Origin: Escherichia phage SP22
Direction: 5' to 3' (one strand)
DNA length: 64,000 bases
Sequence record: LC519489.1
Shown here: piece after piece, positions 26,533 to 26,668 of the stretch
Position numbering within the stretch: position 1 is the stretch's first letter
How the letters are laid out: each line of letters opens with the position of its first letter
Made by a program: the position numbers and the translations under genes
The notes under the pieces: generated by a model
The model's database searches: none
Told to the model about the DNA's origin: nothing
Seen by the model: only the letters and a program-made list of their open reading frames with translations

Positions 26533-26668
26533 TACAGAAGACCGTTTACAGCAAACTTTAAACAATCTATTTCTCCGGTAAAGAAAAGGCGAAGGTTCGA
26601 TTCCTTCACTCGGCAGATGTCGAGTTGGTGTAATGGTAGCACTTAAGATGATAAACAACGGTCTGGTA
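26533..26668 (+). repeat. hairpin element d: tac-aga-agaccgtt ... aacggtct-gg-ta, with tRNA fragments in the enlarged loop
   Basis: 8-bp inverted repeat plus basal tac/gta pairing. Confidence 0.5.
26591..26642 (+). pseudogene. tRNA fragments in permuted order: T-arm + 3' acceptor strand (26591-26615) then 5' acceptor strand + D-arm (26619-26642); acceptor strands are mutually complementary
   Basis: gaagg-ttcgatt-ccttc-actcggc-a / gat / gtcgagt-tg-gtg-taatggtag-cac; no anticodon arm. Confidence 0.45.

Follow-up and report, generated by a model that had tools for sequence, protein, structure and literature searches.

Within the tRNA array of Escherichia phage SP22, two halves of a transfer RNA (tRNA) stand in the wrong order: a T arm with the 3′ strand of an acceptor-like helix comes first, and the 5′ strand of that helix with a D arm follows. 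This happens at positions 26591–26642 of the stretch of record LC519489.1 that was analyzed here over its full length of 64,000 nucleotides, hereafter the window. Does this arrangement record a broken tRNA gene, or does it encode an RNA in its own right? An earlier note on this DNA took it to be most likely a rearrangement relic and left some room for a circularized, permuted tRNA-like RNA. The reading that we favor—with a probability of about 0.8—is that both halves form the interior of a non-coding Y RNA of the YrlA type, here called element d, which lies in the phage tRNA array and is partnered with a Ro60 homologue of the DUF2828 type. Particles of Ro60 and Y RNA have been described in animals, in some bacteria, and in a few phages. 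Element d has a conserved and covarying RNA structure, and it is genetically linked to a gene whose product has a Ro60-like predicted fold.

Structure and conservation of element d

The permuted order described in the earlier note—T arm, acceptor-like helix, D arm—is borne out letter for letter. Its statement that the two acceptor strands are fully complementary holds insofar as they pair over all 7 bp; one of these pairs is a G·U wobble (G26613·T26620). The minimum free energy fold of 26533–26669 places these parts in a larger frame, in which a terminal stem encloses four successive hairpins: a variable-arm-like hairpin (V), the T arm, the acceptor-like helix (AS), and the D arm. The terminal stem is laid out as an outer UAC/GUA part, an AGA/G internal loop, and an inner AGACCGUU/AACGGUCU part. 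The counterpart of this element in phage Michonne folds alike. The permuted tRNA-like RNA that the earlier note had kept as its minority reading was thus essentially right; the circularization that came with it is not needed, as the AS is a closed hairpin and the terminal stem joins the ends of the RNA.

Read from the sequence, the nucleotides of a tRNA elbow are present: a U at the position-8 equivalent (U26626), together with the UUCGAUU and AAUGGUA loops of the T and D arms. Element d has no anticodon, no encoded CCA, and no tag reading frame. The check with ARAGORN that the earlier note had proposed yields neither a tRNA nor a transfer-messenger RNA (tmRNA) at 26591–26642, and Rfam at its gathering thresholds finds nothing at the site; a sub-threshold match of the Rfam tRNA model (24.7 bits) takes the V hairpin as the anticodon arm. 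To judge from the letters, AUCUA might pair with UAAGAU (26644–26649) in a manner that resembles an anticodon stem; in phage pEC-M719 the partner reads UAGAU, a perfect 5-bp match. With the downstream sequence shuffled, 1.5% of trials pass a loose descriptor of T arm, hairpin, and D arm, which also has one chance match in an open reading frame (ORF) at 5244. As such a descriptor alone is unspecific, the case rests on the canonical T and D loops, on conservation, and on covariation.

The window belongs to a Felix O1-like phage (Felixounavirus), and element d is conserved in about 245 Felix O1-like genomes; the 456 bases around it match 251 phage records, mostly at 95–99% identity. Mooglevirus relatives keep both the T and the D arm as they are and build the AS helix from other sequences, with compensatory changes. 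This helix reads ACTCGGC/GTCGAGT in the window, ACACGT/GCGTGT in Silverhawkium and pEC-M719 (ACACGU/GCGUGU as RNA, with a UACG loop), and ACCCTTC/GAAGGGT in Michonne (ACCCUUC/GAAGGGU as RNA, with an 8-nt loop). The V stem is kept and its loop varies (CCGGUAA in the window, CUCAAAA and CUGGUAA in relatives), and the T loop is invariant across the alignments. Among the changes between relatives are indels of lengths not divisible by three, and these speak against the small ORFs that some genomes have annotated here. The elements would explain the recurrent spurious "hypothetical protein" annotations in this region. Taken together, the kept T and D arms and V stem, the rebuilt AS helix, and the non-triplet indels argue for selection on RNA structure and not for the decay of a gene fragment. 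Relatives often close the AS hairpin with a GNRA or UNCG tetraloop, and the frequency of these stable caps suggests a closed helix rather than a cleavage site.

Two related phages carry altered versions of the element. In Salmonella phage SP116 (locus L001, 1546–1580), a natural deletion has fused the T arm of d with that of tRNA-Lys(UUU), whose 3′ end is retained. Lost are most of this tRNA, the long hairpin before it, and, from d itself, the 3′ terminal strand together with the arms AS and D. This T-loop-to-T-loop deletion indicates that T loops serve as recombination sites in these arrays. In phage EC6 (locus L002, 1534–1550), an A replaces the C of the G53–C61 equivalent in the T stem, a mismatch that may be a sequencing error or a sign of relaxed constraint. 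In phage S19cd, what looked like an insertion of 410 bp proved to be an artefact of BLAST joining repeated boxes, as did a comparable case in EC6.

A Ro60-like protein and a family of linked RNAs

Element d lies 1.2 kb downstream of the gene at 23948–25363 and on the same strand. An AlphaFold model of its product, built from 47 homologues (pLDDT 89, pTM 0.88), predicts a TROVE-like helical ring of HEAT repeats followed by a C-terminal vWA domain with a DVSSS MIDAS motif; D279-x-S281-x-S283 is invariant in the homologues. When the PDB is searched with Foldseek, the top 11 matches are all Ro60, Rsr, or phage Ro60 (probability 1.0, full length), and isolated vWA domains come next. The full-length structural matches—1YVR, 2I91, 2NVO, and 9L5Y—include Ro60 of X. 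laevis, Rsr of D. radiodurans, and Ro60 of Thermus phage phiLo. In a viral structure library, the similarity links phage and giant-virus proteins of DUF2828/DUF7788 to others that bear a TROVE or Ro-like annotation. On this modeling, the gene product is predicted to fold like Ro60. For the Bas63 homologue, gp130, a preprint reports a Ro60-like structure and the ability to counter the Ppl defense system, and offers the guess that "some tRNA genes" of Bas63 could be Y RNAs partnering gp130.

The linkage between RNA and gene extends well beyond the Felix O1-like phages. For this analysis, 80 phage loci encoding DUF2828 homologues were collected, and 75 distant loci were counted for membership. 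One covariance model (R1) was built from Felix-like sequences and a second one (R2) from 13 distant sequences alone, with no Felix-like sequence among them. MAFFT gave no usable alignment of the distant members in the AS and D regions, and alignments fitted by the covariance models were used instead. R1 finds related RNAs beside DUF2828 genes of only 40–47% protein identity, with 29/29 matches on the strand of the gene. In the alignment of the 13 best distant R1 matches, 93.7% of the cells are paired versus 36–46% with the partners slid by 1–3 columns, 22 of 27 base pairs are changed on both sides, and the covariation score is 0.80 versus 0.10–0.15—figures that are somewhat inflated by the fitting of this alignment to the structure of the model. 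Across the family, the T-arm helix is 100% paired with both-side changes in four of its five pairs, all seven AS pairs covary, and so does the inner terminal stem.

Turned around, the search leads back to the starting point: the top match of R2, the model free of Felix-like sequence, is element d of the window (105.6 bits, E 9e-19). All but one of the 96 R2 matches (95/96) lie on the strand of the DUF2828 gene, many within 400 nt of it. A motif check found the box described below in 86 R2 matches, 24 of which are long forms with a T loop. At least one family member is present in 46 of the 75 distant loci, and the permuted elements are distinct from the tRNAs called by ARAGORN, save one tandem-tRNA false positive. 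Within the window, no confident match (b and d with R2, a with R1) is more than about 1.3 kb downstream of the Ro60-like gene; the only other match (29119–29242) is marginal and has no box. The DUF2828 family itself ranges over Felix O1-like phages, Vibrio jumbo phages, and many uncultured phages. This phage RNA family is widespread and, in the literature available, undescribed.

At two loci of uncultured phages, up to six members stand head to tail, with short and tRNA-like forms mixed (L078, 5383–6116 and 8479–8612; L064, 5401–5642). These runs directly follow the DUF2828 gene, and ARAGORN calls no tRNA nearby.

Such short forms also accompany element d. Elements a–c of the window (Table 1) have only a terminal module in common with it, which consists of AAG, a stem closed by a G–C pair, the UUACAGCAA box, and a CUG tail. 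Among a–d the box reads CAGAAGACCnnnUWCAGCAA, with UUACAGCAA contained exactly in a and d, and the outer three base pairs of the terminal stem covary (GAC/GUC, UGC/GCA, AGC/GCU, UAC/GUA). Element c was reported by neither R1 nor R2 at E ≤ 1. A consensus of the module, drawn from 80 non-redundant distant members, starts on its 5′ side with A-A-G (G in 79/80, the A preceding it in 55/80), followed by five to seven stem nucleotides. Then comes the box u-U-W-C-A-G-C-A-A, in which C, G, and C are each present in 80/80, the following A in 78/80, and the last A in 69/80. On the 3′ side, the stem strand ends in C (79/80) and is followed by U and G (75/80); the fourth nucleotide of the tail is U in only 24/80. 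A regular-expression descriptor of box plus stem was too loose to be relied on, with 249 matches on the gene strand versus 98 on the other.

Table 1. Features of the window around element d, ordered by position; R1 and R2 are the covariance models described in the text.
Feature	Position	Strand	Basis or remark
Ro60-like protein gene, 471 aa	23948–25363	+	Pfam DUF2828 and DUF7788; PHROG 850 "RNA-binding protein"
Two sigma-70-like promoter matches (25382, 25473), 10/12 each	25382–25502	+	between the Ro60-like gene and the tRNA/RNA array
Element a, short family member: terminal stem, AGA/G internal loop, AAG, UUACAGCAA box, variable interior	25801–25877	+	box search, fold, R1 38.2 bits
Element b, short family member	25968–26031	+	box search, fold, R1 38.8 bits, R2 36.1 bits
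Element c, short family member; AAG / stem / AUUCAGCAA / CUG by eye	26443–26523	+	box search, fold
Element d, complete tRNA-like (YrlA-type) RNA, 136 nt	26533–26668	+	minimum free energy fold; R2 match 105.6 bits
Terminal stem of d, 5′ strand: outer UAC, internal loop AGA, inner AGACCGUU	26533–26546	+	fold
Conserved box UUUACAGCAA, directly 3′ of the stem strand; presumed protein-binding module	26545–26554	+	present in a–d
AUCUA, possible anticodon-stem-like strand; partner UAAGAU	26565–26569	+	read from sequence
V (variable-arm-like) stem-loop UUUCU-CCGGUAA-AGAAA, 5-bp stem, 7-nt loop	26570–26586	+	fold; Rfam tRNA-model alignment
T arm GAAGG-UUCGAUU-CCUUC	26591–26607	+	G53–C61 equivalent; UUCGAUU loop
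AS, acceptor-like 7-bp helix, 4-nt closing loop AGAU	26608–26625	+	sequence, fold
Acceptor 3′ strand ACTCGGC-A (discriminator-like A)	26608–26615	+	then GAT
Acceptor 5′ strand GTCGAGT	26619–26625	+	then TG
D arm, 4-bp stem GUGU/GCAC, loop AAUGGUA	26628–26642	+	equivalents of A14, G18, G19, A21
Terminal stem of d, 3′ strand: AACGGUCU, unpaired G, outer GUA; holds the conserved C-U-G	26657–26668	+	fold, consensus
HNH homing-endonuclease ORFs	27433–27831, 28423–28875, 29214–29627	+	PHROGs 2255 and 10822

Comparison with Y RNAs and competing explanations

RNAs of the YrlA type are circularly permuted tRNA mimics (PMC4201824; Wang et al. 2018, bioRxiv 10.1101/312249). They are defined by a 5′ Ro60-binding motif that is followed by V, T, AS, and D stem-loops, and by a position at most about 4 kb from Ro60 on the same strand (PMC4201824); binding by a Ro60 orthologue and modification by TruB and DusA complete the list of family traits. 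The likeness to element d is extensive. In YrlA (RF02553), too, a terminal stem joins the ends and the interior runs through V, T, a closed acceptor-like hairpin, and D, with canonical T (UUCRA) and D (GG) loops and a U at position 8. As in the family of d, the RNA lies close to a Ro60-type gene and on its strand, and shorter sister RNAs occur nearby (compare YrlB). The two differ in the protein-binding part, which is the motif GNCGAAN0-1G in YrlA and AAG, the G–C stem, UUACAGCAA, and CUG in d. They also differ in the partner, which belongs to Pfam TROVE there and to DUF2828/DUF7788 here, and the RNAs of the window sit inside a tRNA array.

How closely the covariance models bridge this difference can be read from the scores. 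RF02553 scores two distant members of the phage family (both at L078) with 38.9 and 28.7 bits; as a control, the accepted YrlA of mycobacteriophage ET08 scores only 37.4 bits against a threshold of 69, which shows the Rfam model to be narrow. R2 in turn detects the tRNA-like part of the ET08 YrlA (36.3 bits, E 2.5e-6), with the terminal module of that RNA going undetected. The ET08 YrlA is located just upstream of the Ro-like gene gp220; gp72, next to the tRNA cluster of ET08, was tested as the Ro gene and is not one. As the tRNA-like domain is common to both and the module and the protein sequence family differ, d is best regarded as a new YrlA variant that falls outside RF02553 itself.

Other Ro60 systems are comparable in part. 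The metazoan and Deinococcus Ro60–Y RNA particles (1YVP, 2I91, 2NVO) are similar in the fold of the ring protein, in the presence of several Y RNAs per genome, and in the combination of a conserved terminal helix—bearing an internal loop or bulge—with a variable effector loop. They differ in the helix itself, which is GGUCCGA versus AAG...CUG with an adjacent single-stranded box, and in the protein, whose identity is only 10–17%. Thermus phage phiLo also encodes a Ro60 homologue with two adjacent Y-like RNAs, Yrl1 and Yrl2; these were recognized through a CGAA motif, with no tRNA likeness described for them, and the protein is a recognizable TROVE member (PMC12135203). The phiLo ribonucleoprotein (RNP) binds the PNPase of the host, which has been proposed as an anti-defense strategy (PMC12135203).

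From these parallels, a possible mode of action can be outlined. Elements a–d would be transcribed together with the tRNAs and released by the tRNA-processing machinery. The promoter-like sites ahead of the array suggest such co-transcription, although a consensus scan counts no more promoter matches than in shuffled sequence. The 5′ and 3′ ends would pair in the terminal stem, and AAG, the G–C closing pair, the UUACAGCAA box, and the CUG tail would be bound by the Ro60-like ring protein. The interior would act as a circularly permuted tRNA made of V hairpin, T arm, closed acceptor-like helix, and D arm, with T and D loops forming the elbow. By analogy with Ro60/Y RNA particles, this tRNA-shaped module might tether the ring protein to a factor that recognizes tRNA shape—for example a host tRNA-processing or tRNA-modifying enzyme, an exoribonuclease, or a defense nuclease—and elements a–c might be sister RNAs with other effector loops. 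YrlA of M. smegmatis is cleaved by RNase P and receives CCA, with its seven-pair AS helix as the determining feature (PMC4201824); as the AS helix of the window has seven pairs as well, RNase P cleavage between 26618 and 26619 is possible, and relatives with shorter or tetraloop-capped AS helices argue against such cleavage in general. Functional leads are limited to the Ppl-counter phenotype of Bas63 gp130 and to the PNPase-binding phage RNP of phiLo.

Several points weigh against the assignment of d to the YrlA type. That this RNA is produced, is stable, and binds the protein is something that we infer. The motif GNCGAAN0-1G is missing from the terminal module of d; GGCGAAG at 26588–94, at the junction of V and T, is the sole such motif in the element and is not kept in relatives. 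The Rfam YrlA model RF02553 has no match on the window even at E ≤ 10, with a threshold of 69 bits. For the product of 23948–25363, Pfam calls no TROVE domain, a sequence search against the PDB gives no match, and when profiles are compared, only the MIDAS region aligns with the Ro protein of ET08. The fold energy of element d is unexceptional (z = −1.26), and the position-48 equivalent—the Levitt partner of 15—is C, A, or U among close relatives, so that this tertiary contact of tRNA is not always kept. To these are added the T-stem mismatch of EC6, the inflation of the pairing and covariation figures stated above, and phage SP116, which is viable without the 3′ part of d and makes this element dispensable for viability at least there.

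The alternative that survives best, improbable as we consider it, accepts a real structured RNA and makes it independent of the Ro60-like protein: elements a–d would be processing or punctuation signals in a tRNA polycistron, such as entry sites for RNase P, E, or III, or serve as a decoy against host nucleases that target tRNA, and the linkage to the gene would be incidental. The elements do lie between tRNAs, and many distant DUF2828 loci have tRNA arrays as well. Yet members are often found within 400 nt upstream or downstream of the DUF2828 gene even where ARAGORN finds no tRNA nearby (L078, L064), and the confident matches of the window keep within about 1.3 kb of the gene though the tRNAs reach 31973. 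An acceptor-like helix of 7 bp is a known determinant of RNase P, which cuts the YrlA of M. smegmatis, and a conserved 24-bp duplex follows d; against an entry site for such processing, the frequent stable tetraloop caps suggest that the AS helix stays closed.

Very unlikely, in turn, is a functional tRNA or tmRNA in two pieces or in permuted form, which would be cut in the acceptor loop or circularized and could then be aminoacylated. The order of T arm, 3′ acceptor strand, linker, 5′ acceptor strand, and D arm is that of permuted tRNA and tmRNA genes, the helix has 7 bp with a discriminator-like A, and the YrlA of M. smegmatis is both cut by RNase P and tailed with CCA. In the permuted tRNA genes of Cyanidioschyzon merolae and in two-piece tmRNA genes such as those of alpha-proteobacteria, the 3′ half of the cloverleaf is likewise encoded upstream of the 5′ half, but their products decode or are aminoacylatable after circularization or excision. 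Element d bears no anticodon stem-loop in the right place—its only 7-nt loop, CCGGUAA, has no U33 and varies in relatives—and it has no encoded CCA and no tag frame; ARAGORN and the Rfam tmRNA families give nothing, and the closed AS helix differs in length and loop between relatives, with tetraloop caps among them.

Least credible is the relic favored by the earlier note, in which recombination or deletion would have left behind, without function, a 3′ tRNA half and a 5′ half from a different or duplicated tRNA gene: even though d sits in an array of 25 tRNAs interrupted by HNH endonuclease genes, SP116 documents a T-loop-to-T-loop deletion, and adjacent tRNAs can mimic the pattern (as at L048), this view is contradicted by the lack of any donor tRNA or other copy of either half in the window within 3 mismatches (0 expected by chance), by the upkeep of the arrangement across Felixounavirus and Mooglevirus in about 245 genomes with an AS helix rebuilt by compensation from different sequences, and by distant phages in which a strongly covarying and strand-linked RNA of the same architecture, enclosing stem and box included, accompanies a homologue of the upstream gene. 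An ancient origin of d from the T half and the D half of adjacent tRNA genes is possible.

To our knowledge, bacterial Y RNAs have previously been found only beside TROVE-annotated genes. If d is a Y RNA of the YrlA type, the much larger phage family DUF2828/PHROG 850 has cognate RNAs of its own, a tRNA mimic included. The candidate RNA partners of gp130 would then be the four unannotated elements between tRNAs, which makes the anti-Ppl mechanism testable.

Dictyostelid Class I RNAs and neighboring features

The terminal module also resembles an RNA family from a very different group of organisms. Class I RNAs of Dictyostelia start with AAG and form a covarying 6-bp terminal stem; their 5′ G is invariant, and its pairing partner is the C of CUGU on the 3′ side (Kjellin et al. 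2021, PMC7919456). The 5′ strand is adjoined by the 11-nt motif CCUUACAGCAA, in which U3, C6, C9, A10, and A11 are nearly invariant; the remainder of these RNAs of about 60 nt and 32–41% GC is variable, and they have been reported as unique to Dictyostelia (PMC7919456). They are abundant and developmentally regulated, and their molecular function is unexplained. The phage module matches this description (RF01414) in the AAG, in the G–C pairing into CUG(U), in the short covarying stem with a variable remainder, and in a box, (CC)UUACAGCAA, that directly follows the 5′ strand and has the same C, C, A, and A positions invariant. The short phage forms, 60–80 nt and AU-rich, are similar in size and composition. 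The module departs from Class I in its two leading C's, which are not conserved, and in the final U of the tail (only 24/80, as given above). In addition, Class I RNAs are eukaryotic, with a DUSE promoter about 60 nt upstream and transcription by RNA polymerase III, whereas the phage has an enterobacterial host and sigma-70-like matches only; the tRNA-like insert of some phage members is unknown in Class I RNAs.

A scan of 246 nt against all 4227 Rfam families gives Dicty_Class_I_RNA (RF01414) as the best family for element b (24.0 bits, E 0.017), and no other Rfam family aligns in its full length to the short elements. RF01414 also scores 23–25 bits on independent elements of L078 and L052 and on the Michonne counterpart of b. 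Against a link stands that all RF01414 scores (13–25 bits) fall below the 41.5-bit threshold. On seven further loci RF01414 has no match, which weakens the support from the covariance model, and scores of 25–40 bits also occur at eukaryotic 3′ splice sites, which calls for caution. No paper linking Class I RNAs to Ro60, Y RNAs, or DUF2828 was found in the literature searched.

Overall, we regard it as a tentative and rather doubtful idea that the DUF2828-linked phage RNAs (a–d and at least 86 members, at 46 of 75 distant loci) are of the same kind as the dictyostelid Class I RNAs. If they were, Class I RNAs would be the counterparts of Y RNAs for a DUF2828 protein that resembles Ro60, and DDB_G0281243—an uncharacterized protein that was pulled down with Class I RNA—would be the first candidate partner. 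Phage member d would then show a YrlA-style effector domain grafted onto a Class I-like module. DUF2828 proteins have been reported in plants and were found here also in phages and in giant viruses of protists. For the Class I RNAs of Dictyostelium, long unexplained, the common terminal module offers a concrete lead that can be tested.

The covariance model of Kjellin et al. for Class I RNAs has also scored an Arabidopsis locus, ath_can_1, with 40 bits (GUUUUC-AUUACAGCAA...GAAAAC-UG; bioRxiv 10.1101/2020.04.05.026054). Its authors dismissed this locus for want of the promoter motif; as plants encode DUF2828 proteins, it may merit renewed attention, although many such matches look like 3′ splice sites.

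The wider setting of element d is a row of 25 tRNA genes on the + strand, which extends to 31973 and is broken up by three HNH endonuclease genes. Directly after d, a 24-bp near-perfect duplex encloses about 95 nt and ends 3 nt before tRNA-Lys (26668–26812, + strand). Its fold has a z-score of −4.7, and the stem is kept in Mooglevirus with several compensatory changes as the interior diverges. This duplex, to which Rfam has no match, might serve as a site for RNase III or represent a further structured RNA. The leader at 25524–25645 (+ strand), which separates the promoter-like sites from the first tRNA, has a weak full-length match to sraL, a family of Hfq-binding small RNAs (28.5 bits against a threshold of 39, E 5e-4), and may be a structured leader or a chance match. 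Further downstream, the Rfam tRNA model scores 31.7 bits at 27388–27466 (+ strand), where ARAGORN calls nothing. This match overlaps the start of the first HNH ORF in Table 1; relatives annotate a tRNA-Arg there, and the site may be a tRNA gene altered by the insertion of the homing endonuclease.

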